A stretch of 64,000 nucleotides of DNA from Longimicrobiales bacterium (GCA_965202805.1 OZ241869.1:2464001-2528000), one strand, 5' to 3'; counted from the stretch's first letter, positions 16,612 through 61,665 are shown. The notes: generated by a model from the sequence alone, not told the origin. Numbers and translations are program-made.

Positions 16612-18420
<1,809 letters not shown>

Positions 18421-42780: not shown

Positions 42781-43047
42781 TCAGAACTCCGTCAGCACGG
42801 CGATCACCAGGATCACCGCCAGCGGCAGCGGGCTCGCGGCCAGGATCCACAGCCGTTTGGGCTCGAACTTCAGGTGCATGTAGTAGAGCGCCACCAGCAG
42901 GGCCTTCCAGAGCGCCATGAGGATCAGACCCGTGGCGAGCAGCCACTGCGGGAGGGCGAGAAACGCGTACCCCACCTCGGCCATCGTCAGAACGAAAAGT
43001 ATGAACCAGATCAGGAAGTATCTGGGTTCTTGCCCGTTGCCTGCCAT
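42781..43047 (-). CDS. ctaF: Cytochrome c oxidase subunit IV (CtaF-like)
   Basis: Y..IW..L.VLT..EV ... KALLVALYYMHLKFE; follows subunit III. Confidence 0.88.
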   Translation of the reverse strand: MAGNGQEPRYFLIWFILFVLTMAEVGYAFLALPQWLLATGLILMALWKALLVALYYMHLKFEPKRLWILAASPLPLAVILVIAVLTEF

Positions 43048-43090
43048 CCGGGTGTCTCCTTGGTTTCCAGGCGGCGGTCCGCCCCGATGA

Positions 43091-43726
43091 TCAGATCAGG
43101 TAAACGATGGTGAACAGGATGATCCAGACCAGATCGACGAAGTGCCAGTAGAGACCCATGATCTCCACCGCCCCGTAGTTGTCCGCCGAGTACTTGCCCT
43201 GCCACGCGCGGTAGAGCACGAACCACATGCACAGAATCCCGATCGTGACGTGGGTGCCGTGGAATCCCGTCATCGTATAGAAGGTGGCTCCGTACAGGGC
43301 GGCTCCCTCGATCTCGTGCGCCACGCCGTACAGCTCCACCATGGGCACGAAGCCCTCCTGCGCCAGCAGGATGTACTCGACCACCTGAACCCCGACAAAG
43401 AAGGTGCCGAGCAGGATCGTCACCAGGAGCCAGAATCTGAGCCCCTTCTGATCGCCCTGCGTGATCGCGGCGTAGGCCTTGACCATCGACACGCTCGAGC
43501 AAATCAGCACGAACGTGTTGAAGGCCGTGAGCGGCACGTTCAGCACCGCACCGGGCTCGGCGAAATGATCCGGGTGGGCGAATCGCAGGATGATGTAGGA
43601 CCCGATCAGGGCCGTGAAGAACATCACTTCCGACAGCAGGAAGATCCACATTCCCAGCTTTACGTTGTAGACCATCATCCCGGGCATGGGATGCCGGTCG
43701 GCTGTCGATGCGGCTGGTTGGCTCAT
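43091..43726 (-). CDS. ctaE: Cytochrome c oxidase subunit III
   Basis: GMWIFLLSEVMFF, NTFVLICSS, Q..EY, FYTMTGFHGTHV, GLYWHFVDLVW. Confidence 0.96.
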   Translation of the reverse strand: MSQPAASTADRHPMPGMMVYNVKLGMWIFLLSEVMFFTALIGSYIILRFAHPDHFAEPGAVLNVPLTAFNTFVLICSSVSMVKAYAAITQGDQKGLRFWLLVTILLGTFFVGVQVVEYILLAQEGFVPMVELYGVAHEIEGAALYGATFYTMTGFHGTHVTIGILCMWFVLYRAWQGKYSADNYGAVEIMGLYWHFVDLVWIILFTIVYLI

Positions 43727-43803
43727 GCGTCAGCTATCTCCTGAAGTTCCAGATCACTGGAGGGAATGCGGTTCGGCCGGCGAAACGAAGACGGGCATCG
43801 GGT

Positions 43804-45564: not shown

Positions 45565-46266
45565 CTACTGGTCCTCCTGATCGTCAGCGTCGTCGGCGTC
45601 GTCGGCGTCCGCGCTCCGGGAGGCGACCCACGCCTGGAAGTCGGCATCCTCGTACACGTTGAGTGTCCCGCCCATGGTCGTATGCAGGTTTCCGCACAGC
45701 TCCGCGCATCCGATGGGATACGCGCCCGCGGTGGTCGCTTCGAACCAGACGGTGATGTCCATCCCCGGCACGGCATCCTGCTTCACCCGCATCTCGGGCA
45801 GGAAGAACGAGTGCAGCACGTCCTCGGACCGGAGGGTGATGTTGACCGCCTGGTTCACCGGGACATGCATGATGTTGATCGTCGAGATGTCGTCGGCGGT
45901 GCCGGTGACCCCGTCCGTGCCGGCGTAGGTGATCTCCCACTCGAACTGCTTCGCGTTGACGATGTAGTCGAGGGCGTCGGCGGGCACGCTGTCCGGATTC
46001 TTCATCTGGTTCCACGACGGAATGCTGATGAAGGCCAGCCCCAGAACGGCGATGAAGGGGACGGTGGTCCAGACGATCTCCGCCTTCGTCGACCCGTGGA
46101 TGTAGGTGGCCTTCCGCCCTTCGCGGCGCCGGTAGCGGATGACGAAATAGACCAGGAGCGCCTCGGTGACCACGAAAACGATTCCCGTGACCACGAGGAT
46201 CGCATAGTAGAGGAAGTCGACGTCCGGCCCAAAGGTGGAATAACTGTCGGGGAGGAGCCAGCTCAT
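45565..46266 (-). CDS. ctaC: Cytochrome c oxidase subunit II (CuA), no fused cytochrome c
   Basis: 2 TM helices; EIVWT; QFEW; DVLHSF; KQDAVPG; CAELCGNLHTTM. Confidence 0.95.
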   Translation of the reverse strand: MSWLLPDSYSTFGPDVDFLYYAILVVTGIVFVVTEALLVYFVIRYRRREGRKATYIHGSTKAEIVWTTVPFIAVLGLAFISIPSWNQMKNPDSVPADALDYIVNAKQFEWEITYAGTDGVTGTADDISTINIMHVPVNQAVNITLRSEDVLHSFFLPEMRVKQDAVPGMDITVWFEATTAGAYPIGCAELCGNLHTTMGGTLNVYEDADFQAWVASRSADADDADDADDQEDQ

Positions 46267-46380
46267 GTTGGTGTTCTCCTGCTCGCTGCCGGGGATGATT
46301 CCGTGCGGGCTGGATGCCCGGTCGCGTACCGGACCGGCGCCCCAGCGGGGAGGCGCCGGCCCGTCCTCGGCGCTTCGTGT

Positions 46381-47259
46381 CTAATGGGTCGCGGGAGCGA
46401 GGGCGTGGGCTCCGGCACCGTGGGGATCGATCGGCTCGCCCATCGGCACCACGGCGTTCGCCGCCATCGCCTCCGAGAAGGAGAAGCTCACCATTGCGGT
46501 CTCGCCGGTGGTGACGGTGACGCTGGCGGTCTGCGTTCCGTAGCGCTCGTGCCATGCCTCGACCACGTACTCACCGGGCGGGAGCATGCCCAGGTCGGCG
46601 CCTCCCTCCATGTCCGTGACCCCGTGGAAGGGGTGGTCCAGCACGCCCACGTAGGCGCCCATCCAGCCATGCACGTCACAGCGCACCGGGACCATCACCT
46701 CCGCCAGCGGGAAGTTGCGGTTGGTGTCCATGTTCACCGGCTGGCTGATGTTGAAGCCGCGGTTTTCGCTGGGCGAGGCGTTGATGTTGTGGGGCAGGCC
46801 GTCCGAGTTGCGGAAGGTGAGGTCCTGTCCCGCCTGCACGCCCACGACCCTGGGCACGTAGCGGCAGCCGACCTGGTCCATGACCACCGCGCCGCCGGGC
46901 GTGGGGAAGCTCATGCCCGCGTCGAGGCCTTCCCGGACGTAGACGAAGACGTTGGCGAGGCCGCCGCCGTCGCCCACCACGACCTCCTCGGTCATCGGGG
47001 TGTCGGTGTACCGCGCCGCGCAATCCGGCTCGGACGCCATGTCGATCGCATCCATTTCGGGCGCCATGCCCTCGAACATCACCATCGCGTTGATGCCGCC
47101 CGCCGTGGCCATGTCGACGGGAGAGGCCATCTCCTCGCCGGCGGCCTCTTCCTCCATGCCGCCGCCGGCCTCACCTCCGCCGCCGCCACCGCACGCGATC
47201 GCGAATACCGCCGCCGTCGCCATCACCATGGCCCGGCCGCATCCAAACAGGTCTCTCAT
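46381..47259 (-). CDS. Lipoprotein with a cupredoxin (type-1 Cu) domain and a carboxypeptidase-regulatory-like beta domain
   Basis: Lipobox FAIAC; DQVGCRYVP; NSDGLPHNI; CDVHGWM (His..C-x2-H-x2-M, amicyanin spacing); PGEYVVEAWHE. Confidence 0.8.
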   Translation of the reverse strand: MRDLFGCGRAMVMATAAVFAIACGGGGGGEAGGGMEEEAAGEEMASPVDMATAGGINAMVMFEGMAPEMDAIDMASEPDCAARYTDTPMTEEVVVGDGGGLANVFVYVREGLDAGMSFPTPGGAVVMDQVGCRYVPRVVGVQAGQDLTFRNSDGLPHNINASPSENRGFNISQPVNMDTNRNFPLAEVMVPVRCDVHGWMGAYVGVLDHPFHGVTDMEGGADLGMLPPGEYVVEAWHERYGTQTASVTVTTGETAMVSFSFSEAMAANAVVPMGEPIDPHGAGAHALAPATH

Positions 47260-47293
47260 TCCTTCCTCCGTGGTGCTATTTGAACTTCGATGT

Positions 47294-48964
47294 CTACGCG
47301 TCGCCTTCATCCGGGCCCTCGGCGCCTTCCCGCTCGCGCTTCTGCGCCCGGGCCACCACCAGGACGCCCAGCCCGGCGGTGAGCAGCGTCGCGATCAGCG
47401 GCGCGACCACCACGGTGGCTGGCGTCGGTTCCTGCAGGAAAATGTAATGCCATGAACTGATCGAGCCCCTGGTCCCGGATTCGCCGTTGTCGCCGTCCCA
47501 GGCGGCGAAGCCGACGGGCACCGGTTCGCCCACGCGGAACTGCAGATCACCCGGATCCTCGGTCTCAAGAGCGCGGCGGAACATAACAGCCCAGCGTCCC
47601 GCCGAAAACGCCGCCTCCGATACGAGCGACTGGCTGGCGTCGCCCTGAGGGGCCATGGTGCCCAGCCCGCGGGCGTCCCCCTCCTGCGCGGCGCCCGCCG
47701 TGCTCTCCCAGTTCCACAGGTACACCGGGTTGAGGGGATCCCCCATGAGGAAGTAGGGCTTGTCCATTCCCTCGGGGATTTCCATGGGGAACTGAACGTA
47801 CAGGGCGTCGGGTCTCGGACCCGGTTCCATGTCGCCCTCGTCGGGTCCCACCACCTCGAGAATCCGGGCCTGGAAGTCGGCCCAGGCGGTGTCGGGGCTC
47901 TCGGAGTGGTCGCTCCAGGAGACGTGCACCGCGAGTTCGCCGCCGTCGTGCAGGGCGCGCACCCACAGCCCGCTCACCTGCGGGACGAACCAGCGCGGGC
48001 TCTCGATGATCTGTCCGCCCATGGGAATGTAGAACGCCTCCGCGGACTCCCACATCGGGTCGTCCACACCCTGCGGCAGGGGCGCATCCTCCACCAGACC
48101 GGCCCGGATCACCTCGGTGATGCCCGGCGGGTCCTCGGGCGCGAAGCTGCGCACGTAGTGGGAGAGGTTCCACAACTGTTCGTCGGTGATGACGCCGGCG
48201 TCGATGAGGTCGGTGAACGACGGCATCGGCGTCCCGTCCAGGCCGGTGCGCAGCCGCTGGTAGATGTCCTCCACCGTGCCGCCGCCGTTGAAGAACCAGT
48301 TCTCGGTCAGGTCCACCGAGTAGATCGGCATGCCGGTGTCGTCCACCAGCGTCGGCGACGAGGTGCCGTCGCCCCGTCCATCGGCGCCGTGGCAGCGGTT
48401 GCACTCGATGAGCTCGTAAACCTGCTGTCCGTCTGCGAGGGCTTCCTCGGTCGCCCGGGTCGGGCTGCTGAAGGTCATGGGCTCAGGGGCCTCGCCGGCG
48501 GCGAAGAAGCGCGAAAAACTCTTCAGGTAGTCGACGAGCGCCAGTCGCTCTTCGAGGCTGAGCTCTTCCTCCCATCCGGGCATCGTCGTGCCCGGCATGC
48601 CTTCGTTGATGACGCGCATGATGTCGTCGTCGGTGGGAAGCTGCCCGCTCGCCGTGGTGCGGATCTGGTAGAGCGCCTGGGTGAAGTCGCGCGGGCGCGG
48701 CAGCATGTACTCCGCCGCGTAGCCGTCGCCGAGACCTTCGTACCCGTGGCAGGACGCGCACCAGCGGTCGTAGACGTCCCGCCCGAGCGCGTTCTCTTCC
48801 TGGGCGTCCTGCGCGATCAGGGGCACCGGGCCGGCGCACACGATCGCCGCGACGAGAACGCTCGCCGCCGCCATCCCGAACGCAGCCCGGGTACGGACCC
48901 TCCGGGCGCGTCGCCGGGTGCCGCGTCCGTCTCTCTCCGCCGTTTCCATCGCCCGCGCCCGCAT
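47294..48964 (-). CDS. Diheme cytochrome c fused to an ethylbenzene-dehydrogenase gamma (EbdC/NxrC-like) heme-b domain
   Basis: CASCH..G.GDG..PRPRDFT; GMPGTTMP; CNRCH; GLDGTPMP; C-terminal VRALHDG..VSWSD, D..YVQFP, LMGDP..PVYLWNW, FAAWDG; C-terminal TM segment. Confidence 0.85.
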   Translation of the reverse strand: MRARAMETAERDGRGTRRRARRVRTRAAFGMAAASVLVAAIVCAGPVPLIAQDAQEENALGRDVYDRWCASCHGYEGLGDGYAAEYMLPRPRDFTQALYQIRTTASGQLPTDDDIMRVINEGMPGTTMPGWEEELSLEERLALVDYLKSFSRFFAAGEAPEPMTFSSPTRATEEALADGQQVYELIECNRCHGADGRGDGTSSPTLVDDTGMPIYSVDLTENWFFNGGGTVEDIYQRLRTGLDGTPMPSFTDLIDAGVITDEQLWNLSHYVRSFAPEDPPGITEVIRAGLVEDAPLPQGVDDPMWESAEAFYIPMGGQIIESPRWFVPQVSGLWVRALHDGGELAVHVSWSDHSESPDTAWADFQARILEVVGPDEGDMEPGPRPDALYVQFPMEIPEGMDKPYFLMGDPLNPVYLWNWESTAGAAQEGDARGLGTMAPQGDASQSLVSEAAFSAGRWAVMFRRALETEDPGDLQFRVGEPVPVGFAAWDGDNGESGTRGSISSWHYIFLQEPTPATVVVAPLIATLLTAGLGVLVVARAQKREREGAEGPDEGDA

Positions 48965-49767
48965 CAGTGCTCCTCCCCTTCGGCGCCCTCTTCCTCCCAG
49001 GTGCGCGGCTCCCAGCCGGTCTGCTCGTAGAGATAGATGATCACCTGCCAGATCTCCTCGGCGGTAAGCAGGTCCTCCCAGGCGGGCATCGCCGAGTCCC
49101 AGGGCGTGGCCTCGCGGGGCAGCCCGGGACCACCCTTCGCGATGCGCCAGAAGACGAAGCTCTCCGTAAGCTGAACGATGGTGCCCGGATCCTGGAAGCT
49201 GAGCGGCGCGGGGTTGAAGGCGCTCGCGAAGTGTCCCTGCCCGTCCAGGGCGTCGCCATGGCAGGCCATGCAGTTCTGGACGTAGACGCGCTTGCCTTCC
49301 TCGTAATGCTCGTTGAAGTCGCCCTCGTGCCGGAGCGGGTTCTCGAGCCCATCCAGGACCATGGTCTCTCCCCGGAAGTCGATCTGACCCGGGGGCGCCG
49401 GATGCACCGAGCGCAGCGCGGCGGGTGCCGACACCGTGGGCCGTACCCTGTCGAAGGTCATGAAGGCTACCAGCAGGGGAATGGTGACCATGAGCGCCGT
49501 GCGCAGAACCTTCTGGCGCGGATCGACCATGACCCGGTGGATCGGGGCCTTGAACTGCTTCCAGCGCTCCTCGGAGTCGCTGACCCAGATCAGGACGCCC
49601 ACCACCACCGTTCCCATGTATTGCAGAACCACGGTGGCGGGGACCGGGGCGCTGGCGACCCCGAACAGGGGCGGCAGGAGCCAGATTCCCCATTCGAAGA
49701 GGAGGTACGCCAGCACGACGACGATGGCCGCCTGGCCCAGCGGATGCTTCCAGGGCTTGGTGTTCAT
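48964..49767 (-). CDS. Membrane-anchored monoheme cytochrome c
   Basis: Three N-terminal TM segments; RSVHPAPP; CMACHG; FWRIAKGGPGLP; SAMPAW. Confidence 0.88.
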   Translation of the reverse strand: MNTKPWKHPLGQAAIVVVLAYLLFEWGIWLLPPLFGVASAPVPATVVLQYMGTVVVGVLIWVSDSEERWKQFKAPIHRVMVDPRQKVLRTALMVTIPLLVAFMTFDRVRPTVSAPAALRSVHPAPPGQIDFRGETMVLDGLENPLRHEGDFNEHYEEGKRVYVQNCMACHGDALDGQGHFASAFNPAPLSFQDPGTIVQLTESFVFWRIAKGGPGLPREATPWDSAMPAWEDLLTAEEIWQVIIYLYEQTGWEPRTWEEEGAEGEEH

Positions 49768-49795
49768 CGATTCTCCTCCCTCACCGGCGCCTCTC

Positions 49796-50605
49796 CTATC
49801 TCTGCGATGCGAGGAATTGCACGATCGCCTCGAGTTGGCCGGCGGTCAGCATGTCACCGAAGGTCGCCGGCATGGTCCCGGCAAAGGTCTCGTATCCCTC
49901 GGTGATCTCGGCATTCGGATCCAGGATCGATGTACGAATCTCGTCGGCCGTCATGCGCGATCCTATCCCGTCGAAGGGAGGGGCGAGCCGCACGGGCATC
50001 TCCATGGCGGCGGGCAGATGGCACGCCGTGCAGGTATTGACCTGCAACAGCATCTCCGGATCAAGGGTCGCGCCCCCGGCGCCCGGGGCGGCTGGCGTCA
50101 CCGCAGCCAGGCCGGCGGCAGGCGCGGCGTCACCGCCGTCCGCGAAGTCCGCCCCGGTAACCGTCACCACCCCTCCCATGGACTGCAGGTAGGCGACCAG
50201 CGCCCAGATCTGCACGGAGGAGAGGGTGCGGCTGGCGTCCAGCATGATCGGCGCGAACCCTTCGACCAGGTAGGCGTTGGGGTCCACCATCGACGTATGC
50301 AGGTACTGCTTGCAGTCCTCGCCCGGCACGCGGTTCGCGCAGCGTTGGCCGATGAGCCCGGTGCCCGCGTGGTCGGTGAGCAGGTTCGGGGCGCGCTCGC
50401 CCAGACCGTGGCAGGCCGTGCAGCCGCCCCCGCCGTTGTACAGTTCCTCGCCCGCCGCGACGAGTTCCTCGGGGCTGACGTCGTCCGACAATACCAGGTC
50501 CTCGGGCACGTCCGACTGGATCTGCGGAATGGCGTTGGCGACCCAGGTGAACACGCCCAGGCAGCCGATCACCACCGCCAGGATACTCAGGTTGGTCTTT
50601 AGCAT
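49796..50605 (-). CDS. Membrane-anchored diheme cytochrome c
   Basis: N-terminal TM segment; IPQ; CTACH twice; S..DPNA..M in each domain. Confidence 0.9.
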   Translation of the reverse strand: MLKTNLSILAVVIGCLGVFTWVANAIPQIQSDVPEDLVLSDDVSPEELVAAGEELYNGGGGCTACHGLGERAPNLLTDHAGTGLIGQRCANRVPGEDCKQYLHTSMVDPNAYLVEGFAPIMLDASRTLSSVQIWALVAYLQSMGGVVTVTGADFADGGDAAPAAGLAAVTPAAPGAGGATLDPEMLLQVNTCTACHLPAAMEMPVRLAPPFDGIGSRMTADEIRTSILDPNAEITEGYETFAGTMPATFGDMLTAGQLEAIVQFLASQR

Positions 50606-50614
50606 CTGCCTCCC

Positions 50615-52420
50615 CTATCCCTCGCTGGGTGCCGGCTGAAGTTCGCTCTGCATCCCGCCGGCGGCCGAAGCCTGCCCCACCGACGAGATCACGGGTTTCT
50701 CGGCCAGCGAGCCGAGCCAGAAGATGAAGGCCACCAGTCCGAAGAAGATGAGCACGCACGCGGAGATGACCACCGACGAATAGCCGAGCGCGGGGGTGGC
50801 CGCCCACGGGCTGGTGTCGCGAATCACCTCGAACACATGCCAGTGCTGGCGGATGCCGCTGCGGGCGAAGCCCATGAGGCCCATCAGCCAGGTGAAGGTC
50901 ACCGCCAGGATGAAGAGCGCGTACTGGGAGCGGTCCGGCATGCGGCCCCACTGGATCTCGCCTCTGGAGCTGGCGCCGCGCAGCATCAGCAGATCGATGG
51001 TGATCACGCCGATGATGCAGGCGAGCACGGTAAGCACCTGGTAGACCGAGAAGCTGATGCGCACGAGAGTCGGTACCATGTAGCCGTAGATCCCGTAGAA
51101 CAGCACGATCGCCGAGGCCACCACGAAGATCGCGCCCTGCACGATCGTGCCCGTGCGCGCCCACGACACCACCGGTTCCTTGTTGGCGCGCCGGTAGAGC
51201 AGGAACGACAGGAAGGTGGTCAGGATCATGAAGTTGACCGCCGTGTTCTTGCCGCTCATCAGCCCGAGGACGCTGAGGAAGGGGTGGTGCGTGCCGCCCA
51301 TCGCCGCGAACTCCTCGCGGCTGGCGATCATGGTGTTGGGGGTCGCCCACACGATCACGCCCACGATGAGCACCGCCAGCATGTACTTCGTGTAGGGCAT
51401 GAAGCGCTCTGCCCCGGGTATTCGCCCCATCCCCATCCAGAGGTAGTAGTTGCCGGCCAGGAAGAGCACCCCGATGAGGAAGGCCTGAATGATCCACAGC
51501 CAACTCATGAAGCCGCCCATCATGGTGATGCCCATCTGCTGGTTGAACTCGTAGATCTCCCGGCCCAGCCAGTAGCCGGCGAAGGGCAGGATGATGAGCG
51601 CGCCGATGGCGATCATGTTGCCCACGTAGCCCATCCAGTCGTAGTGGGCGCGCTCCTCGTCGCTCTTCGCCGCCAGGAAGCGGTACGCGGCATAGGCGCC
51701 GACCACCGCCCCCCCGAACACCACGTTGGCGATCAGCCGGTGGATGTTGATCGGCATCCAGGTCGCGTTGGTGAGCGCCGACCACAGCTGCACCATCTGG
51801 GGAGCCGTGTCGACGGTGACCTCGGCCGGCGGGCTCATCATGTAGGTCAGCCAGCCGTTGGCGATGAACATGACGATCGTGCCCCACACGTTCAGCGCGA
51901 TGCCCAGCCCCCAGTGGAACCACTTGGCGCGCCCCTTCTTCCACCGGTCCCAGCCGTAGTAGTACAGGTACAGCGTGAAGGACTCGAAGAAGAAGAGCCC
52001 CACGTAGACCCACATCGACAGGTTGAAGATCTGGGCGAGATAGCCGAACAGGGTGGGATAGATGGTGATCAGCAGGAAGAGCAGGATGCCGCCCCAGATG
52101 GCGGTGGCGGAGTAGGCGACCAGAAGGAGCCGGGTGAACTCCTTGGACAGCTTGTCGTAGCGCTCGTCGCCCCCGAACATGCCGATGGCCTCGGTGACCA
52201 CCGCGAACATGGGCACGCCCAGAACGAAGGCCGCGAAGAGCAGGTGCACCTGGGCGGCGATCCACACCGCGGCCCGTCCGCCGATTACGGGGAAGTCGCC
52301 GTAGTCGCGACCGGCGGGCACCTGGGCGAACGCAGGCTCGGCCATCACCAGGAGGGCGAGCACGCCCAGCAGCAGGAGCGGTCCGACGCCCACGCGCCAG
52401 GTCATTCCGGGTTTCGCCAC
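50615..52420 (-). CDS. Cytochrome bd-type subunit I-like (CydA superfamily, non-canonical)
   Basis: QVHLLFAAFVLG (H19 equivalent), FFFES..Y.Y.W (E107 equivalent), ANGW..MMSP, NIHRL (H186 equivalent), MGFARSGIRQHW (GRQPW-like). GTG start at 52420 follows GGAGAG; alternative starts at 52456 and 52405. Confidence 0.85.
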   Translation of the reverse strand: MAKPGMTWRVGVGPLLLLGVLALLVMAEPAFAQVPAGRDYGDFPVIGGRAAVWIAAQVHLLFAAFVLGVPMFAVVTEAIGMFGGDERYDKLSKEFTRLLLVAYSATAIWGGILLFLLITIYPTLFGYLAQIFNLSMWVYVGLFFFESFTLYLYYYGWDRWKKGRAKWFHWGLGIALNVWGTIVMFIANGWLTYMMSPPAEVTVDTAPQMVQLWSALTNATWMPINIHRLIANVVFGGAVVGAYAAYRFLAAKSDEERAHYDWMGYVGNMIAIGALIILPFAGYWLGREIYEFNQQMGITMMGGFMSWLWIIQAFLIGVLFLAGNYYLWMGMGRIPGAERFMPYTKYMLAVLIVGVIVWATPNTMIASREEFAAMGGTHHPFLSVLGLMSGKNTAVNFMILTTFLSFLLYRRANKEPVVSWARTGTIVQGAIFVVASAIVLFYGIYGYMVPTLVRISFSVYQVLTVLACIIGVITIDLLMLRGASSRGEIQWGRMPDRSQYALFILAVTFTWLMGLMGFARSGIRQHWHVFEVIRDTSPWAATPALGYSSVVISACVLIFFGLVAFIFWLGSLAEKPVISSVGQASAAGGMQSELQPAPSEG

Positions 52421-52439
52421 GTTTCTCTCCGAGGTTGTG

Positions 52440-53888
52440 TCAACTCCGGGGAACATCGTCATCCCCCGGAATTCCGTCGCGCGATACGGCCGCGGACATC
52501 TGTTTGCGTAGGAAGAAAGGGAGTCGCCTGGAGAAATCAACCGGCATGCCGCGGCGCACCTCCGCCATCACCTCGGCGGTCACGGCGGCGTACCCCTGCT
52601 TGCGAGCGAACGACTCCACGCGGTCGGACACCACGCCGCGCACGAAGCTGGGCACGACGGACAGGCGCGCGCGCGCCTCTTCGGTCCAGGGGAGGCCGGG
52701 GGCGGTGTCGTCGCCGTACACGACCTCGCGCCGCGGCTCGATCACGGCCCGGTCGCCGGCCGGATCGTAGGCGCAGGAGTCGTCGGGTCCGAGCAGGTCG
52801 CCGGTCAGGGCGTGGGCGCGCGCGCGACAGCCCCCGCACACCGCGCGGTACTCGCAGCGCCCGCACCGCCCCCCCAGCTCCCCGCCGCGCAGGCGGGCGA
52901 AGACCGGGGATGACTCCCACACCTGGCGGAAGGGGGTGGTGGTGAGGTCGCCTGCCACCACCGGCGTGTAGGGACAGGGAGTGACCTTGCCTTCCGGGGT
53001 GATGCGGCAGTAGTGGACGCCGCACGGACAGCGCGTGCCGTAGTTCAGGAGCGGCGACTCCTCCCCGCCCTCGATCACGTGGCGCATGATCTGCGGCTGG
53101 CACTTGGAGCGGACCATCATGCGGCCCCGGTACTCGCGCTCGAGCTCCACGAGCTCGGCCAGCACGGCCTCGTTCTCCTCCGGGGAGAGGCCCTGCATGC
53201 GCTCCCCCCGCCCGGTGGGAACCAGAAAGTACAGGTTGAACGAAACCGCGCCCCGGCTCTCCGCCCAGCTCGCGATATCGGCCACCTCCGCCCGGTTGCC
53301 CCGGGTTACGCTGGTCTGGACGATGAAGTCCAGGCGGTGCGCCGCGAGCCGGTCCACCGCGTCCAGCGTGTCGGAGAGCGCCCCGGACCCGTGGCGAAAG
53401 CGGTCGTGGTAGGTGTCGACGAGCGAGTCCACGCTCACCGCGACCCCCTTTACCCCCGCCTCCATGAGCGACTCGATTCGCCGGTCGGTGAGGCGGGTGC
53501 CGTTGGTGCCCACCACCACGGTGGCCCCGCCGGCGCTCGCCCGGGCCGCGATCTCCTCCAGGTCGTCGCGCAGAAGCGGTTCCCCGCCCGAGAGGATGAG
53601 CACCGGATTCGGGTTGACCTCCAGAATCTGGTCGAGCACGCGATGACACTCCGCGGTGGAGAGCTCGGTCTCGGCCAGGTGCCACGACCCCGCGGAGATG
53701 TAGCAGTGCGCGCACTCCAGATTACAGCGCCGGGTGAGGTTCCACGCGATGATGTGAGGGAGCCCGGGCGCCGCCCCCGAATCCGCCGACACGCCTTCCG
53801 CGACCCAGCGGAGGGAGGGGGTGGTCGAGGGTTCGGAGAAGCCGTCCCGCCCCAGGGTGGGGAGAACGGCGGTGGACGGATCGGCCAT
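52440..53888 (-). CDS. Radical SAM/SPASM enzyme (NirJ/Ahb-like) with C-terminal PCP_red domain
   Basis: AWNLTRRCNLECAHC, LSGGEPLLR, GTNG, PTGRG; SPASM CPCG..PCPY..CGRCEY..CGGCRARA..C; tail WTEEARARL..VPSFVR..VE.FA..G..VT.EVM. Confidence 0.9.
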   Translation of the reverse strand: MADPSTAVLPTLGRDGFSEPSTTPSLRWVAEGVSADSGAAPGLPHIIAWNLTRRCNLECAHCYISAGSWHLAETELSTAECHRVLDQILEVNPNPVLILSGGEPLLRDDLEEIAARASAGGATVVVGTNGTRLTDRRIESLMEAGVKGVAVSVDSLVDTYHDRFRHGSGALSDTLDAVDRLAAHRLDFIVQTSVTRGNRAEVADIASWAESRGAVSFNLYFLVPTGRGERMQGLSPEENEAVLAELVELEREYRGRMMVRSKCQPQIMRHVIEGGEESPLLNYGTRCPCGVHYCRITPEGKVTPCPYTPVVAGDLTTTPFRQVWESSPVFARLRGGELGGRCGRCEYRAVCGGCRARAHALTGDLLGPDDSCAYDPAGDRAVIEPRREVVYGDDTAPGLPWTEEARARLSVVPSFVRGVVSDRVESFARKQGYAAVTAEVMAEVRRGMPVDFSRRLPFFLRKQMSAAVSRDGIPGDDDVPRS

Positions 53889-56008
53889 CAGGCCTCTTCC
53901 CGGCGCATGAACTGCTCGACGGCGGCCTTCGCGTCGGCGGGGCTGACGGTCTTGAAGTCGACGGGGCAGTCGTCGGCCTGCTCGGCCACGTCGCGGATCG
54001 GGCAGCGGGTCACGCCCGACTCCCTGGCCTCCTCGATGAACTTGCGCATCTCCGGGGTCAGTCCGTCGACACCCTCGGCGGCGGCCTTGAGCTGCTTGGT
54101 CTGCAGCTCCCGGAACATCACCAGCATGGTGTCGGTGTCGAAGGTGTCCGCCTCCATCATGGCCTGCTTGTTCTCGTCCATGACCCGCGTGGTGATGCGC
54201 CAGAAATCGTGGTCGCGGGCGAAGCGCTCCACCGTGTTGCGGGCCAGGGGGCGGGCGATGAGCGGCACCGCGCCCAGGCGGTCGAAGGCCTCCTCCGTCC
54301 ACACCACCGGGTCGGCCGCCGTGCGCACCCGCTCATGCACGTGCCCGGTGTAGGGGCACTTCGTTTCGATGGTCGGGTTGGCGGGCACGGGATCGGCGTC
54401 GTTGCCCTCCACCACTGTGCGCTTCATGGCCTCTCCCGCCTTCACCTCGGCGAGGGCGAGCTCCTCGGCCGTGCCGATCCCCATGATGAGCTGCATGTGG
54501 GTGGGCAGCAGCTTGGCGATCGCCTCGTCCAGCCACTCGCTGGTCACCATGGGCAGGGTGCCGCCGGTGTCCCGCCCGGGCTCCAGAAGCGGCGGTTCGG
54601 CTCCACCGGATCCGTTCGCGCGCGCGGCCGAGGCGCCATTTGCGCGAGCCCCGTTGGCGCCGCCGGATCCGTTGGCGGAGGGCTCGGGCGCCTCCTCCCG
54701 CGGGCGCCAGTTCTCCAGCACGTATTCCTCCACCGCCTTGCGGGCGATGCCGAGCGCGAAGGGCGGGACGCGCAGGATGCGGACCTCCGCCTCCGGAGCC
54801 CACTCGAGCCCCATCTCGCCGTCTTCCTCGATCCAGGGAATCTCCTCGGGACGAACGTCGGTGGTGCCGATGAGGAGGATGTTCGCGTCCGACTGCCTGA
54901 GCAGATTGTGCGCCTGGGATCCCAGGTCCGTGCCTTCGATGCGGTGCGCTCCGTGGCGCGCGAGGATGAGCAGGCCGGGGTCGACTTCCTCGGCCCACTG
55001 CAGGATGACCTGGAAGGGCTTGCCGATGAGCACCTGGGTCTCCACTTCGACCTCCGGATACTCCTCCGCCATGATGCGCGCCCGCTTCACGTTCGCCTGC
55101 GCGAGCTTCAGCAGGCCCTTGTCGATGATGTTGTTGTGAAGCTCTTCCTGCTCCTCGAACTTGAAGATCTTCGAAGCCTGCACCGAGAGCACGTCCTTGA
55201 TGTTGCCGAAGACCGCGTGATGGTACTCGACATCGAAGGATGAGCCCACATAGAGCTTCGCCCCGTACTCCGACGCCATCTCCAGGGCGAGGCGCATGGC
55301 CTTGTAGCTGTACGCGGAGCCGTCCACGCACACCATGAAGCTGCCCCCGGCGAGCGGCCGCTCGTTCCGCACCACGAAGGCGTCCTTGTCCACCTTCTGC
55401 AGCACGCGCGCCACTACGCCGCCGAGCTGGGAGAAGGGCTGATGGCCGATGCCGTGCGCCCCGATCACCATCAGGTCGTAGTCGCGGCCGCTCGATCCGG
55501 CCAGCTTCTCGTCGTGATCCTCGTCCTCGGCGACGATGCGCCCGTCTTCGCCGAGGCGGACGTCGCTGCGCACCTTGTCGCCCCCGTCGTAGCTCGAGGC
55601 GATGTTCGGATCGAAGCCGATGAGGCTCGGCAGGTGGCCCTCACCCGAGTTCACCTCGCTCACGATCTCCTCGTAGTTGATGCCTTCCAGCAGCTGGCGC
55701 GTCAGCGGCACGCCGGCATCCCGGCAGCGGCGGTCGACCTGGTCGAGGAAGGAATCGGAGATGAGCTGCAGCCCCTTCTCGATCAGCTTGTCGTGGATCT
55801 TGCGCTGGCGCTTGATCTCGGCCTCGGTCTGAAACTGGGCGGGAAGCCCGGTCTCGAGCTGGCGGAAGCGGATGTCGTGCAGGCGCGCGGCGTAGACGTG
55901 GTTGCCGGTAACGTTTCCGTCGGAGCGCGAAGCGAGTTCGATGGCGCGATCCACCGCCCAGTCCGACCAGGGCGAGTTGTCCACCGGAACGAAGATCTCA
56001 CGATACAT
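53888..56008 (-). CDS. Tandem universal stress protein domains plus two PCP_red domains
   Basis: IFVPVDNS / VIGAHG..LGGV and VCVDGS / LARHG..LGS (two USP folds); WAPEAEVRI.RVPPF and WTEEAFDRL..VPLIAR. Confidence 0.88.
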   Translation of the reverse strand: MYREIFVPVDNSPWSDWAVDRAIELASRSDGNVTGNHVYAARLHDIRFRQLETGLPAQFQTEAEIKRQRKIHDKLIEKGLQLISDSFLDQVDRRCRDAGVPLTRQLLEGINYEEIVSEVNSGEGHLPSLIGFDPNIASSYDGGDKVRSDVRLGEDGRIVAEDEDHDEKLAGSSGRDYDLMVIGAHGIGHQPFSQLGGVVARVLQKVDKDAFVVRNERPLAGGSFMVCVDGSAYSYKAMRLALEMASEYGAKLYVGSSFDVEYHHAVFGNIKDVLSVQASKIFKFEEQEELHNNIIDKGLLKLAQANVKRARIMAEEYPEVEVETQVLIGKPFQVILQWAEEVDPGLLILARHGAHRIEGTDLGSQAHNLLRQSDANILLIGTTDVRPEEIPWIEEDGEMGLEWAPEAEVRILRVPPFALGIARKAVEEYVLENWRPREEAPEPSANGSGGANGARANGASAARANGSGGAEPPLLEPGRDTGGTLPMVTSEWLDEAIAKLLPTHMQLIMGIGTAEELALAEVKAGEAMKRTVVEGNDADPVPANPTIETKCPYTGHVHERVRTAADPVVWTEEAFDRLGAVPLIARPLARNTVERFARDHDFWRITTRVMDENKQAMMEADTFDTDTMLVMFRELQTKQLKAAAEGVDGLTPEMRKFIEEARESGVTRCPIRDVAEQADDCPVDFKTVSPADAKAAVEQFMRREEA

Positions 56009-56249
56009 GGCTGCCTCGATTGGGGGTGCTCGAGGGATCTGGCGCGTGTGGTTCAGCCATGCAACTCGCGAGCGGCGGACGCATGTCCGCCAAGGCAGGA
56101 AGAGAGCAGGAGGCAGTCCACTTGGTTCGGCAAGTCAGGCAGGGCCAAGTCCCCGAAGGCGGTCGCCGAAAGGTCGGCGTACATAACATAAGCGGGCACC
56201 CGGGCCCGCTCGTCAGATCTCATGTGTCGGCCCCTGCGGAGCCGGGCAA

Positions 56250-56279
56250 ATTATACCGGAAATCGCCAATCGATGTCAA
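56250..56279 (-). promoter_or_regulatory. Consensus sigma70 promoter TTGACA-N18-TATAAT driving the USP-radical SAM-cydA-like-cox genes
   Basis: Plus-strand ATTATA at 56250-56255 and TGTCAA at 56274-56279 read as exact -10 and -35 hexamers on the minus strand, 18 bp apart. Confidence 0.8.
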
Positions 56280-56350
56280 ACGCCGCGGAGGGGCGCGGAG
56301 GCGCCCGCGCAAAGGCTCGGATCCACTCCGGGAAACCGCCCCGCCTCGAG

Positions 56351-56803
56351 TCAGAGATCCCATCCGGCGCGCGCCAGCATCCACAGGTTGATGACGATGA
56401 CGACGATGGCCGTGAGGTAGAACCCCGGGGGCAGCGCGGCGTCGGGTCCGGGCAGGAACGCGCCTTCGATCATGCTGGGCAGGCGCAGCGCATGCAGCGC
56501 CCAGATCCCCCGGGCGAGCCAGACGCTCCGCCGGAACCAGAGCCCCCAGAAGACGAGCGCCACGATGGCCGCCCCGAGCAGCAGCCAGAGCACGATGGGC
56601 CCGCGGATGGGGTTGACGAGCCCGTTGCGCCACATGGCGACCACGGCGGCCTCGTAGAGCAGCCCGACGTGCAGGTACCAGAAGGCGGCCTGCCGGAACT
56701 TGCGGGCGCGTGCGCCGGCGTTCTTCGGCGCGGGTCCCTGCTGCTGCCGCATCGTGGGAGCGGACACGGAATCGCGGGCGGCGTCCCGGCCTGACCCGGT
56801 CAC
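56351..56803 (-). CDS. Hypothetical 4-TM membrane protein
   Basis: RARKFRQAAFWYLHVGLLYE ... WMLARAGWDL; GTGA overlap with the upstream gene and a GGAGG RBS. Confidence 0.75.
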   Translation of the reverse strand: MTGSGRDAARDSVSAPTMRQQQGPAPKNAGARARKFRQAAFWYLHVGLLYEAAVVAMWRNGLVNPIRGPIVLWLLLGAAIVALVFWGLWFRRSVWLARGIWALHALRLPSMIEGAFLPGPDAALPPGFYLTAIVVIVINLWMLARAGWDL

Positions 56804-57252
56804 ATTTCCTCCAGTCCCAGGTCCGAGCGCGCCGTGTCCATGACCTCCGGGGTCATGCGGTCGATGCCTCGTTGGCGGGCGTAGTCGGTGTAGATGCGCT
56901 TCACCATGCCGCGCACGAAGGACGGCACCCGGCCCAGCCGATCCACCGCGGCCGGGGTCCACTCTACCCGGCCGGGGCGGGCGGGAGCGGGGGGCTCCTC
57001 CTCCACGAAGGCGTCCTGCCGTCCTCCCTCCAGGTTGCCCCGCACCAGTTCCATGGGCTGCTCGGGCACCGTCCGGCCTCCGATTTCGATGCCCATGCTG
57101 CTCACCAGCCGGGTCTCCATGGGGTTGGTGAGCATGGCGATGTCGAGCCCGCACGCCGAGCACTCGAACACCGCCGCCAGGGTGCCGTCCCCGGGCAGCT
57201 GGCGTTCCGCGAAGGCCATGATGTGATCGCACTGGATGCAGAGGAACTTCAT
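56800..57252 (-). CDS. Zn-ribbon plus PCP_red domain protein
   Basis: MKFLCIQC..FECSAC..TNPMET; C-terminal WTPAAVDRLGRVPSFVRGMVKR..YA..G..TPEVMD. Confidence 0.85.
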   Translation of the reverse strand: MKFLCIQCDHIMAFAERQLPGDGTLAAVFECSACGLDIAMLTNPMETRLVSSMGIEIGGRTVPEQPMELVRGNLEGGRQDAFVEEEPPAPARPGRVEWTPAAVDRLGRVPSFVRGMVKRIYTDYARQRGIDRMTPEVMDTARSDLGLEEM

Positions 57253-58157
57253 CGGCCATCCTCCTTCCCCGTCCCCCCGAGGCCGGCAAGCCTCCCCGCC
57301 AGCGCCCGGAAGGCGCGCGCGCTCGGCGAGTCTTCTCCTGCGGCGACGACGGGAGTGCCGCGGTCGGAGGTCTCGCCCAGACGGGGGTCGAAGGGGATCC
57401 TGCCCCAGATCTCCAGACCGGTGGCGCCGGCCAGGCGCGCGACGCCGTCTCCGGGAAAGAGGGGATCCGAGTGGCCGCAACACGGGCAGACGTATTCGGT
57501 CATGTTCGCGACCAGCCCCACCGTCGGGATTCCCTGTTCACGCGCCAGGCGCGCCGCCCGGGCCACCACCCGGCGCGACATCTCGGACGGAGTCGTCACC
57601 AGAAGCAGCGTCGCGAGCCCGGGCAGGAGCTGGAAGACACGCTCCATCTTGTCGGTACCCGGCGGCAGGTCCAACAGAAGGAAGTCGAGCTCGCCCCACG
57701 CCACATCCGACAGAAACTCGCGCACGGCCCCGGTCTCCATCGAACTCTGCCACAGGAAGCCGTCACCGGAGGGCGCACGCCAGCGCAGGGGAGCGTCGGC
57801 GTCGTTCTGCAGCAGCTCCATCGACATCACCCGGACCCCGCACGCGGCCGGCGCCGGAACCACGCCCTCGGCCCCGTCCACCAGCCGTTCCCCGGACGCG
57901 CCCAGCATGCGGGCCAGCGACGGGCCGTTCAGGTCGGCGTCCAGCGCGCCCACCGAACACCCCTCTCCGGCGAGGGCGGCGGCCAGGTTTGCCGTCACCA
58001 GGCTCTTGCCCACTCCGCCCTTGCCGCTTCCGACCGCGACCAGGTTGCGAATCCCCGCCAGCCGGCCGTCGAGCCGCCGCCGCTGGCCCCTGATCTGATC
58101 CACGAGCAGGTCGCCCGTCTGCGACTCCACCTCGTGGTAGGTGCGGATCTTTCTCAT
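57249..58157 (-). CDS. Mrp/NBP35 Fe-S carrier ATPase
   Basis: GSGKGGVGKS, LDADLNGPS, WGELDFLLLDLPPGT, ANM..CPCC, IPFDP. Confidence 0.92.
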   Translation of the reverse strand: MRKIRTYHEVESQTGDLLVDQIRGQRRRLDGRLAGIRNLVAVGSGKGGVGKSLVTANLAAALAGEGCSVGALDADLNGPSLARMLGASGERLVDGAEGVVPAPAACGVRVMSMELLQNDADAPLRWRAPSGDGFLWQSSMETGAVREFLSDVAWGELDFLLLDLPPGTDKMERVFQLLPGLATLLLVTTPSEMSRRVVARAARLAREQGIPTVGLVANMTEYVCPCCGHSDPLFPGDGVARLAGATGLEIWGRIPFDPRLGETSDRGTPVVAAGEDSPSARAFRALAGRLAGLGGTGKEDGR

Positions 58158-58181
58158 GGGTCCCGGGGCCTGCGGAGCCGG

Positions 58182-58427
58182 TCAGGGCAGGAGTTGCGTG
58201 CCGTCGGAATCGAGCACGGAAATCGCGTCCACGGGACACTCGTCGCAGGCATCCAGCAGGGTTTGGCGGTCCACCTCGTCGATGCCCTCCCTGAACACGG
58301 CGATCCCCTCGTCATCCAACTCGAACGCGGCTTCCGCGGCCTCGATGCAGTCACCGAATCCCACGCAGAGGTTGCGGTCGATCCGGATCCGCAGGTCTCC
58401 GACCCGTCGCTCCTGAATGTCGCTCAC
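58182..58427 (-). CDS. Single-cluster ferredoxin, likely [3Fe-4S]
   Basis: IDRNLCVGFGDC ... ACDECPVDAI (CxxFxxC..CP; the second Cys is replaced by Phe). Confidence 0.85.
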   Translation of the reverse strand: MSDIQERRVGDLRIRIDRNLCVGFGDCIEAAEAAFELDDEGIAVFREGIDEVDRQTLLDACDECPVDAISVLDSDGTQLLP

Positions 58428-59995: not shown

Positions 59996-60979
59996 ATGGC
60001 CTATCCGCAGCACCGCCTCCGCCGCCTCCGGCAGTCGCCGGCCTGGCGGCGCCTGGTACGCGAGAGCACGCTCCGGGCCGGCGACCTGGTGTATCCGCTC
60101 TTCGTGGTGCCGGGGGAGGAACGGCGCGAGCCCGTGCCCAGCATGCCCGGCGTACACCGCCTCTCCCCGAGGCTGCTGGTCGAGGAGGCCGGGGCGGCCG
60201 TGGACGCGGGGGTGGGCGCCGTGCTCCTCTTCGGGGTGCCCGACCGCAAGGACGCGCTCGGAACCGGCGCCTACGCCGACGACGGCATCGTACCCCGGGC
60301 GGTGCGCGAACTCAAGGCGCACTACCCCGGCCTTCTGGTGTGGACCGACGTGTGTCTCTGCCAGTACAACGACCACGGCCACTGCGGCGTGCTGGCGCCG
60401 GACGGCACCCTGGACGAGGAAGCCACTCTCCCCCTGCTCGCGCGGGCGGCGGTTTCGCACGCTCGCGCGGGAGCGGACGCCGTGGCCCCGAGCGACATGC
60501 TGGACGGGCGCGTGGGCGTGATCCGCGCGGCCCTGGACGAGGCCGGCCACGGCCTGACCCCCATCGTGTCGTACGCCGCCAAGTACGCGTCCGCCTTCTA
60601 CGGTCCCTTCCGTGACGCCGCCCACTCGGCGCCCTCGCACGGCGACCGCCGCACCCACCAGATGGACCCCGCCAACAGCGACGAGGCGCTGCGCGAGGTG
60701 CAGGCCGACCTGGAGGAGGGCGCGGACGTCGTGATGGTCAAGCCGGCGGGCCCGTGCCTGGACGTGATCCGGCGGGTCAGGGATACCTTCGGCGTGCCCA
60801 CCGCGGCGTACCAGGTTTCCGGCGAGTTCAGCATGCTGCGGGCTGCGGGCAAACGCGGCTGGATCGACGAGAAGGCGGTGGCGCTGGAGAGCCTGGGCGC
60901 CATCAGGCGGGCGGGCGCGGACATCATCGTCACCTACTACGCCGTGGAGGCCGCACGCTGGCTGCGCGAAGACGCCTGA
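59996..60979 (+). CDS. hemB: Porphobilinogen synthase
   Basis: RLRRLR, DVCLCQYNDHGHCG, APSDMLDG, SYAAKYASAFYGPFRDA, MVKP, AYQVSGE. Confidence 0.97.
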   Translation: MAYPQHRLRRLRQSPAWRRLVRESTLRAGDLVYPLFVVPGEERREPVPSMPGVHRLSPRLLVEEAGAAVDAGVGAVLLFGVPDRKDALGTGAYADDGIVPRAVRELKAHYPGLLVWTDVCLCQYNDHGHCGVLAPDGTLDEEATLPLLARAAVSHARAGADAVAPSDMLDGRVGVIRAALDEAGHGLTPIVSYAAKYASAFYGPFRDAAHSAPSHGDRRTHQMDPANSDEALREVQADLEEGADVVMVKPAGPCLDVIRRVRDTFGVPTAAYQVSGEFSMLRAAGKRGWIDEKAVALESLGAIRRAGADIIVTYYAVEAARWLREDA

Positions 60980-61665
60980 CGATCCGCCCGGAGAACCGGG
61001 TTCCGGCCGCGCTGGTGGGCATCATCGTGGTCCTGGCCGTCGCGCTTGTGACCATGTCGTTCAACCGGCCCGGGGTCGAAGCCTACGTTCCGACGCCCCC
61101 GAACCCCTCCGAAGCCGGCGAGACGCTGGTCGGCCCCGTCGAGTACACCGTGGATGCCACGTCGACCGACGCGTGGCAGTTCTTCGACTTCTCGCGCGGG
61201 TCGGTGGTGGGAGACCCCGGGGCCCGCGACTGGGACCTGGCCTTCCGGCGCTTCCACATCATCGCCAACGGCGGCCCCGGCTTTTCCGGTGACGGCGGGA
61301 TCATCCGTCTGGAGGACGCCGACTTCGACGCGGTCTCGGAGCTGCCCGACGCACCCTACGTGGAGACCAGGGTCCGGCGCGATTCGGTCAACGCCGCCAT
61401 CGAGCGCTGGTATGCCTACGGCTGGACCAGCCATCTGCTGACGCCGCACCCCGCCGTCTACGCGGTCAGGACCGCGGACGGACGCTACGCCAAGGTGCAG
61501 CTGCTGGGGTACTACTGCCCGGGCGCCCAGCCCGGCTGCCTGACCTTCCGCTATGTCTACCAGGGTGCGGGGGGACGCGCGCTCGGGGCGCCCGGGGAAG
61601 CCGGCACGGTCGTGAATCGCGAGCCGGACACCCGGGATCCACCCCCCTCCGCGGGCGAGCGATGA
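60976..61665 (+). CDS. HmuY-family heme-binding protein with N-terminal membrane anchor
   Basis: VDAT...W.FFDF, WDLAFRR..I..NGG, WYAY, VYAVRTADGRYAKVQLLGYY, TFRY; start codon uncertain (CTG 60976 or GTG 61015). Confidence 0.8.
   Translation: MTIRPENRVPAALVGIIVVLAVALVTMSFNRPGVEAYVPTPPNPSEAGETLVGPVEYTVDATSTDAWQFFDFSRGSVVGDPGARDWDLAFRRFHIIANGGPGFSGDGGIIRLEDADFDAVSELPDAPYVETRVRRDSVNAAIERWYAYGWTSHLLTPHPAVYAVRTADGRYAKVQLLGYYCPGAQPGCLTFRYVYQGAGGRALGAPGEAGTVVNREPDTRDPPPSAGER

Follow-up and report, generated by a model that had tools for sequence, protein, structure and literature searches.

What does the PCP_red domain (PF08369), known from the BchB/ChlB subunit of dark-operative protochlorophyllide reductase (DPOR), do on three unrelated proteins encoded beside a set of respiratory genes? 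The question is raised by a 64,000-nt stretch of a Longimicrobiales genome (GCA_965202805.1, OZ241869.1:2464001-2528000), called the window here, within which all coordinates below are counted. The genes concerned occupy a block at 52440-58427 on the minus strand, as do all other features described unless another strand or locus is named. In gene order they encode a ferredoxin, an Mrp/NBP35-family ATPase, a Zn-ribbon protein with one PCP_red, a small membrane protein, and then, after a 342-nt gap, a universal stress protein (USP) with two PCP_red copies and a radical S-adenosylmethionine (SAM) enzyme with one. A CydA-like subunit, three c-type cytochrome genes, a cupredoxin-like gene and coxBACD follow. 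We propose, with a probability of about one half, that the block is a dedicated cytoplasmic module for finishing and delivering haem to the bd-like (OR-N type) complex encoded next to it, with the Zn-ribbon protein as an adaptor for Mrp. Its domain content, co-distribution with the bd-like subunit, gene coupling, promoter conservation and residue conservation are established. The module is real and conserved; every part belongs to a known family, and the arrangement is apparently undescribed, no published account having been found in the literature searched, which left most subscription journals outside it. Papers cited below by PMC number are drawn on in excerpt.

An earlier note on this DNA had located four PCP_red copies on the three proteins by a sequence motif. 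PF08369 matches were found at those places, with the W codons (52688, 56961, 54301 and 54802) within one base. Whole-protein scores were 55.4 bits for the radical SAM enzyme, 49.0 for the Zn-ribbon protein and 47.6 for the USP (over two stretches), the gathering cut-off being 32.5 bits. Scored singly, three copies exceed that value: copy 1 in the adaptor (56827-56961, 52.9 bits), copy 3 at USP residues 570-614 (54167-54301, 39.1 bits) and copy 4 at radical SAM residues 401-445 (52554-52688, 59.3 bits, and E 2.4e-7 to ChlB 2XDQ). Copy 2 (USP residues 403 to about 500, 54509-54802) is split by a low-complexity insert and scores 22.3 bits alone, below the cut-off, with a match confined to 54710-54802 and profile positions 1-31. 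In the AlphaFold model of this copy, residues 403-433 form the initial strand and a pair of helices, and residues 488-500, beyond a low-confidence insert (446-481), form a further strand and helix that can complete the fold. W403 and P415 of this copy are invariant in the USP alignment. Across all six frames of the 4.02 Mb genome (98% complete) there were exactly four PF08369 matches, all in the block, and the same search was positive in one of 14 control genomes (Synechococcus). Since nitrogenase-like catalytic subunits of the DPOR type (PF00148) gave no match in this genome, the four copies are not DPOR remnants. They belong to the same sequence family and fold as the DPOR domain (2KRU, 2L09, resolved in 2YNM), but differ in their three unrelated hosts, in the insert that splits one of them and in number: homologues of this USP carry from none to six, those with up to six being labelled Nitrospinota, Manganitrophus, SAR324, Mariprofundaceae and Acidobacteriota. 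In one Nitrospiria-type locus a 320-aa protein composed of four PCP_red copies adjoins Mrp and an adaptor with two (L099:17078-18037 and 18049-18738).

The distribution of the module points to what it serves. Among 201 genomes of the same phylum, 58 encode the CydA-like subunit (E <1e-60), and all 58 also have the radical SAM enzyme (E <1e-139), the Zn-ribbon N-terminal domain and PCP_red, with at least three PCP_red copies in 57 and two in one. A second phylum (251 genomes, reached via an Acidobacteriota-labelled record) has the CydA-like subunit in 18; 17 of these have the USP, 17 the adaptor and 18 the radical SAM enzyme, and neither USP nor adaptor was found in the other 233. Three unpublished genomes (G206, G279 and G376) each add one to the positive counts. 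The co-occurrence with bd-like subunits that the earlier note had expected is thus seen in 58/58 and 17-18/18 genomes. Outside these sets, 17 second-phylum genomes lacking the bd-like subunit hold weaker radical SAM relatives (36-41% identity, frames of 354-411 aa) that form a separate group, and one genome of the first phylum (G062) has a single weak radical SAM match (37%). PCP_red occurs in nine further genomes of the first phylum. In G032 the contig with the module breaks off within the radical SAM gene, and G087 has a divergent module and no CydA-like match at E <1e-60. The domains of G135 and G124 look to be of BchB type, and the other five are presumably of that type as well, their scores being similar.

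A metagenome set, the best 80 of 580 candidate loci, gave a broader picture. In a group of 50 loci labelled Nitrospira or Nitrospiria, the USP stands with the radical SAM gene in 41 and Mrp plus adaptor is found in one. Twelve loci are of Nitrospina type, and the remaining 18 mostly lie beside bd-like genes where the contig reaches. Close homologues of the module proteins are labelled Gemmatimonadota or Longimicrobiales, and 48 Gemmatimonadota loci contain the radical SAM gene, Mrp and the adaptor in every case, with the CydA-like gene and the ferredoxin in 47 each. The 22 metagenome loci outside Gemmatimonadota with 4 kb on both sides hold the radical SAM gene in 18, the CydA-like gene in four, Mrp and adaptor in one each and the ferredoxin in none; regions of the second phylum show Mrp in 12/15 and the ferredoxin in 1/15. 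The idea of a dedicated pathway for a combined bd-like/cox complex is supported for the bd-like part, in two phyla, but the cox link belongs mainly to Gemmatimonadota (cox genes in 38/48 loci, against 2/15 second-phylum regions, where they lie near the module on the other strand). Several loci differ in their company. In Nitrospira-type loci a gene for a UbiE methyltransferase and one for a B12-type radical SAM protein precede the USP, and a CopD/DUF4149 membrane gene comes after the radical SAM gene (L103:7356-9801, L093:13392-13901); in N. marina, the long USP and the UbiE pair do not seem to be linked. A genome titled Acidobacteriota (L201, G227:C8:15000-34900) carries a Gemmatimonadota-type module with ferredoxin and a USP at 74% identity, and the CydA-like gene of that genome is of a more distant type (57%) on another contig, which would fit either transfer or mis-binning. 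At L144:18155-22742, Rieske and 3Fe-4S molybdopterin (arsenite-oxidase-like) genes and di-haem peroxidase-type genes follow the module and bd-like cluster, and genes for SCO1/SenC-type copper chaperones lie beside module or bd-like genes at L149, L160, L168 and L211.

The CydA-like membrane subunit (50615-52456, PF01654 77 bits) is present in a single copy, and CydB (PF02322) was not found in the genome. The three c-type cytochrome genes at 47294-50605, with 2, 1 and 2 CxxCH motifs and a haem-b domain of the EB_dh type in the last, form the remainder of the bd-like complex. A CydA-like subunit without CydB, a single cydA and an operon with c-type cytochromes are the features of OR-N2, a label that we apply by analogy and not on the basis of its authors' subfamily hidden Markov models (HMMs) or tree; a crude hydropathy scan gave 11 hydrophobic segments, the excerpted OR-N2 description having 14 helices. 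The OR-N family of the cytochrome bd superfamily was catalogued by Murali, Gennis and Hemp (bioRxiv 10.1101/2021.01.16.426971; PMC10839748, both in part), and its complexes are proposed, so far without experimental confirmation, to serve Nitrospira, Nitrospina and relatives as terminal oxidases or as hubs of electron transfer (PMC10839748, PMC6606698). The present cluster shares its CydA-like subunit without CydB, its c-type cytochromes and its EB_dh-type subunit with the OR-N family and the bd-like_3, alt_NxrC_2 cluster of Nitrospira (PMC6606698); in contrast, an aa3-type oxidase follows here, and the excerpted OR-N descriptions name no maturation genes. The genome also has one cytochrome b-type and two NrfD-type matches. 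Two genomes contain second, more distant bd-like clusters (about 52% identity; L175, G095:C8:56000-74000, and L176, G157:C1:2106000-2124000), preceded by two or three cupredoxin-like genes and, in the fetched stretch, with no PCP_red module gene.

What, then, might the enzyme of the module act on? The radical SAM/SPASM protein (482 aa, 52440-53888) has CxxxCxxC at residues 55-62 and eight SPASM cysteines (C263, 287, 305, 342, 345, 351, 354 and 372). AhbD is characterized by CX3CX2C and a SPASM pattern CX20-33CX17CX36-37CX2CX5CX2CX17-35C, as given in the excerpt of PMC10452713, and this full SPASM pattern is present here and in 66/69 orthologues. The tetrapyrrole kinship put forward for this enzyme is upheld to the extent that the haem-pathway families AhbD and NirJ2 are its closest: TIGR04545 (AhbD) scored 270.9 and TIGR04055 (NirJ2) 270.4 bits, the cut-off being 500, and one or the other was the best NCBIfam model in all 13 radical SAM proteins scanned. 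Its radical SAM motif and its spacing of the eight SPASM cysteines are those of AhbD/NirJ2; the scores, the C-terminal PCP_red, a conserved tail, the lack of an AhbA/B match (PF17805) in the genome and the tie to a bd-like complex set this protein apart. It appears, on these sequence comparisons, to be a relative of AhbD and not AhbD proper. The genome does not show the sirohaem-dependent (Ahb) pathway with its AhbA/B and AhbC: apart from the missing PF17805 match, no second close radical SAM protein was found with the present enzyme as query. Haem-pathway genes also adjoin the module: hemA, hemB and hmuY begin on the opposite strand immediately upstream of its ferredoxin end, and a HemY-like oxidase gene adjoins it in five metagenome loci. 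These genes, together with the limit of 150 bits reached by peptide-maturase models against 271 for AhbD/NirJ2, make it highly unlikely that the enzyme modifies a protein or peptide, such as a bd-like subunit, with the USP as a nucleotide-sensing regulator and haem not the substrate. For such a role speak the closest solved structures, which are the SPASM enzymes PqqE, SkfB and anSME, and the closest folds to the USP, Rv2623 and TTHA0350.

The enzyme could also be a plain O2-independent decarboxylase of coprohaem, held in reserve for HemQ when oxygen is low; Mrp and ferredoxin would then load and reduce its clusters, and PCP_red and USP would be incidental or regulatory. The genome has coproporphyrin-type haem genes with HemQ and no AhbA/B match, the AhbD cysteine pattern is in place, and AhbD is stated to occur in organisms of this kind without other Ahb enzymes and to be able to replace HemQ there (PMC13564367, in excerpt). 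We nevertheless regard this as rather unlikely. A general back-up need not follow one membrane complex so strictly, the scores are far below the AhbD cut-off, and the radical SAM relatives of second-phylum genomes without the bd-like subunit are a separate, shorter group. With about 120 spectral counts, the 699-aa USP of N. marina, which was matched to the module USP on length alone, is an abundant protein whose level does not shift at low oxygen (fold value 0.99; PMC8115632, in excerpt). The loss of the CxxC motif from about a third of the Mrp orthologues, described next, also stands against it.

The presence of an Mrp/NBP35 ATPase and a ferredoxin in the cluster, noticed earlier, is well founded (57249-58157, PF10609 231 bits; 58182-58427, 81 aa, single-cluster, PF13459 41.9 bits). 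Mrp has the deviant Walker A motif SGKGGVGKS (S44-S52) and DLPPG, both invariant, in common with the Mrp/ApbC/NBP35 Fe-S carriers. It differs from them as a second paralogue, 36% identical to a housekeeping Mrp elsewhere in the genome, that lacks the housekeeping-type N-terminal domain, has a dedicated adaptor and bears an RTY..Q extension at its N-terminus and, at the WRGP-type motif, an insert of 10 residues, both absent from the housekeeping protein. Fe-S carriers of this family require a C-terminal CxxC as cluster ligands. The motif is present here and in 44/68 orthologues (41 by a stricter pattern), and the other 24 lack it through 21 clean deletions and three substitutions; because of these losses, the role of a pure Fe-S loader is weakened. 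The Zn-ribbon protein (150 aa, 56800-57252) consists of a Cys4 ribbon, a linker and PCP_red; its C5, C8, C31 and C34 are invariant in 50/50 sequences. Its gene overlaps the Mrp stop by 4 nt, and Mrp lies directly ahead of the adaptor in 12/12 second-phylum regions that show either gene. When the whole protein was modelled with an Mrp dimer and ATP, the complex scored 0.66 and the best of three controls 0.01; the score mark is reached by 116/157 solved and 2/215 mismatched pairs, rates that are only rough for the alignments and ligand used here. Runs had at least 86% of contacts in common, and the pLDDT of the partner was at least 74. The adaptor side of the modelled interface comprises residues 1-60 and 66-85 and, in PCP_red, only 112, 115, 116 and 119, and the 25 best-defined contact pairs all run through residues 66-82. 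The Mrp side is formed by the paralogue-specific extension and insert, with the invariant E147 and D151 facing adaptor P66-V70. The model supports binding of the Zn-ribbon protein to the Mrp dimer, mostly through ribbon and linker, and we infer that, as an adaptor, it would provide Mrp with a PCP_red in trans.

This bears on the proposal of the earlier note, in which PCP_red is a shared docking tag that recruits Mrp or ferredoxin. Each PCP_red would dock on the Mrp dimer (or on ferredoxin), as the BchB domain may on BchL, and Mrp would visit the tagged proteins in turn. The four PCP_red residues that contact Mrp in the model include the invariant F112 and M116, the BchL-bound DPOR complex 2YNM is the single DPOR entry among the fold matches listed, and Mrp is present in 48/48 Gemmatimonadota loci and 12/15 second-phylum regions. 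However, most modelled contacts and all of the best-defined pairs lie outside PCP_red, and Mrp is near in 1/22 well-flanked metagenome loci outside Gemmatimonadota, with the radical SAM gene in 18. USP and radical SAM proteins with PCP_red occur without Mrp in the flanks of Nitrospira-type loci (Mrp in 1/50), the ferredoxin is limited by lineage (0/22 and 1/15), and the number of PCP_red copies in USPs varies from 0 to 6. Recruitment of ferredoxin by PCP_red thus has the distribution against it, and recruitment of Mrp seems quite unlikely. Since the radical SAM enzyme, the USP and, via the adaptor, Mrp would all display PCP_red, its partner is likely something other than Mrp.

To our knowledge, PCP_red has been described without a known function. 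A protein atlas lookup returned only PCP_red clusters, and the available portions of PMC13474568 and PMC12022308 give no account of its role in DPOR. The predicted structure of the adaptor copy, the only copy compared, matches 2KRU with Z 8.1 and a root-mean-square deviation (rmsd) of 2.3 over 58 aligned residues (Foldseek E 4e-4) and 2L09 with Z 5.4, which confirms for this copy three helices and a small sheet as in 2KRU. Beyond these two, the 50 fold matches listed include, counted from their titles, 31 AAA+ ATPases over the same residues and four stand-alone docking domains of replication proteins. Likeness to AAA+ lids and to lid-like docking domains (the PolD DP1 N-domain, 2KXE, and the Pol alpha p68 N-domain, 2KEB/4E2I) was seen at Z 3.2-4.8, with an rmsd mostly of about 3 Å over 50-59 residues. 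PCP_red would therefore have an AAA+-lid-like fold, the signal being middling but uniform, and the stand-alone docking domains may serve as a precedent for a docking role. Unlike a lid, PCP_red has no attached ATPase core, and its sequence kinship to sigma-54 lids is within shuffled controls: an equation of its Arg with the sensor-2 residue, for which hhalign gave the predicted register at a probability of 1.6%, was dropped, as two of 30 column shuffles scored higher and only seven lid sequences were available. All classes of PCP_red copies share only W, A and P and, for the most part, F and R. The first half of the domain has no conserved His, Cys, Tyr or Met common to all of them, which argues against PCP_red as a tetrapyrrole-binding lid that caps a porphyrin in each copy and hands substrate along the array, as does a fold class of ATPase lids and docking domains. 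For such a lid speaks that BchB/ChlB, the one host to have been characterised, works on tetrapyrroles, as does the occurrence of PCP_red on PNPOx-like split-barrel proteins in related loci, some encoded separately next to the module and others joined to the USP (L159:9017-9961, P0137, P0148). The PNPOx-like split-barrel fold includes haem-binding proteins. On balance we consider the porphyrin lid very unlikely.

The USP protein (706 aa, 53888-56008) is best compared with tandem USPs such as Rv2623, TTHA0350 and UspE. Profile matches and the predicted structure (pLDDT 82, pTM 0.65) indicate two USP folds with helical inserts, a pair of PCP_red domains and, at the C-terminus, a tail of helices. 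Two USP folds with putative ATP-type glycine motifs are shared with the known tandem proteins, whereas the His-bearing inserts, the PCP_red array, the Cys-Pro tail and the position at the head of a respiratory operon are not, and Nitrospira homologues look constitutive. Each USP domain has a helical insert with a pair of histidines 28 residues apart (H44/H72 and H263/H291), and these pairs are invariant in 40/40 and 81/81 sequences. USPs that bind ATP have the motif G-2X-G-9X-G-(S/T). In domain 1, G183, G186 and G196 are invariant, and position 197 is S/T in 34/40 sequences and G here; in domain 2, G353 and G363 are invariant, and position 350 is G in 34/40 and A here. The Cys-Pro motifs at C551, C669 and C681 (K-C551-P-Y, R-C669-P-I and C681-P-V) each occur in 45/45 Gemmatimonadota-type USPs, 136 being observed against 10.6 expected from shuffling. 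Haem regulatory motifs have a Cys-Pro core, usually with a basic residue before it and a hydrophobic one after it, and the USP motifs agree with this definition as excerpted from PMC4127239. Their conservation is a sign of selection and not of haem binding. Two long USPs (P0317 and P0318) have a disordered linker in which G-C-P-V-H-H or C-P-V-D-H recurs. Such linker motifs are close to classic haem regulatory motifs. An origin of the Zn-ribbon protein by splitting from longer USPs was rejected: its N-domain HMM matched 0/319 collected proteins, longer forms of the adaptor PCP_red part were found in three proteins only, and the rubredoxin-like knuckles of long USPs are of another type than the adaptor ribbon.

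Transcription appears to be organised around the gap ahead of the USP gene. The 342-nt gap holds a sigma-70-type promoter with 12/12 consensus positions and an 18-nt spacer (56279-56250), about 240 nt ahead of the gene. Sites with at least 9/12 positions lie within 400 nt of the USP start in 64/71 Gemmatimonadota loci (41 with at least 10), as compared with 0/68 coding and 5/71 shuffled controls. As judged from the consensus match, this promoter would divide the module into ferredoxin, Mrp and adaptor on one side and USP, radical SAM enzyme, bd-like subunit, cytochromes and cox genes on the other. Because it is conserved, the USP and radical SAM genes probably head the oxidase operon. Besides the overlap of Mrp and adaptor, coupling is seen in overlaps of 1 nt between the USP stop and the radical SAM start and 17 nt between the radical SAM and CydA-like genes. 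The leader of about 240 nt (56009-56249) contains a terminator-like hairpin at 56211-56190, and the leaders of relatives range from about 25 to 360 nt. No structured RNA was matched in Rfam at 41000-64000, FNR-type boxes numbered eight in the window against 5.1 expected by chance, and no shared operator was seen by eye around the aligned promoters. Four metatranscriptome contig sets covered only 0.08-0.12 of the sequence words, mostly at 90-95% identity; owing to that identity, these contigs come from relatives and are uninformative on strand, start or level. In N. moscoviensis at steady growth, the USP ranks 152nd and the radical SAM gene 748th in transcription, according to the excerpt of PMC6606698, and NITMOv2_0500 to 0496 fit the Nitrospira-type order and gene lengths, having been matched by synteny and length.

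Based on these observations, the proposed haem module for the bd-like complex might work as follows. The AhbD-like radical SAM enzyme would act on a haem-type substrate, either by decarboxylating coprohaem on the spot or by tailoring haem for the CydA-like subunit. The USP, made from the same promoter, would bind nucleotide, and its His pairs and Cys-Pro motifs would let it hold or sense haem or a metal in the role of carrier and hub. The Zn-ribbon protein, as the model supports, would bind the paralogue-specific surface of the Mrp dimer by ribbon and linker, and Mrp would so gain a PCP_red in trans. PCP_red may then be a free-standing AAA+-lid-like docking domain that brings the tagged proteins to a common partner, which is probably not Mrp; candidates are the tagged proteins themselves, the core of the USP and the oxidase's cytoplasmic face. 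Mrp would supply ATP-driven cluster loading or remodelling, and the ferredoxin is a candidate electron donor in Gemmatimonadota-type loci only.

Several findings weigh against this reading. None of the 13 radical SAM proteins scanned reached the AhbD cut-off of 500 bits (246-352 bits, with all 12 relatives included), and, given this and a SPASM pattern common to non-haem enzymes, haem is no more than a candidate substrate. A gene cluster for HemE, HemH, HemY and HemQ is already present in the genome, as are CtaA and CtaB. Co-distribution shows a unit and not a mechanism, because linked genes move as a block and related genomes are not independent. Furthermore, none of the 50 fetched flanks in the Nitrospira-type group contains a CydA-like gene, and the 12 Nitrospina-type loci have the USP without the radical SAM gene beside it. 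The Cys-Pro motifs are found in only 13/36 distant USPs and 10/78 metagenome USPs. The Mrp residues of the modelled interface are not above average in conservation (0.60 vs 0.61), adaptor residues 76-85 are deleted in up to 14/50 orthologues, and Z scores such as those of the AAA+ lid matches are in the middling range. Lastly, 11/12 second-phylum adaptors have Cys-Pro-Phe, by eye at the place of the modelled Mrp contact P66, and this may not be a haem motif.

A bolder version of the haem module, which we consider unlikely, would make it a machinery, so far undescribed, that tailors and inserts haem for the OR-N family. In this version the radical SAM enzyme would make a haem new to bd-type enzymes, and the USP would be a nucleotide-gated haem chaperone with two pseudo-symmetric His pairs and Cys-Pro motifs. 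The free-standing, lid-like PCP_red domains would serve as a common address by which enzyme, chaperone and, via the adaptor, an Mrp that in many lineages has itself ceased to bind a cluster are brought together.

The remaining neighbours of the module are less closely tied to it. The 150-aa membrane protein encoded at 56351-56803, which the earlier note left unnamed, has an uncertain start and no Pfam or NCBIfam match, and is a variable member present in 19/48 Gemmatimonadota loci. Downstream and in the same direction, the cupredoxin-like lipoprotein-type gene and coxB, coxA, coxC and coxD of an aa3-type oxidase occupy 42781-47310, in an order conserved in Gemmatimonadota loci. After coxD, a 318-aa membrane protein (41544-42500) looks internally repeated and has no Pfam or NCBIfam match; several Gemmatimonadota loci have a homologue close to the module. 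At the other end, the HmuY-family haem-binding gene follows hemB (60979-61665), and many Gemmatimonadota loci have a homologue of it just upstream of the module.

In conclusion, a module that tracks OR-N complexes names the genes to co-express for a loaded complex and a candidate haem enzyme. PCP_red, a domain with structures but no assigned role, thereby gains a testable function beyond photosynthesis.

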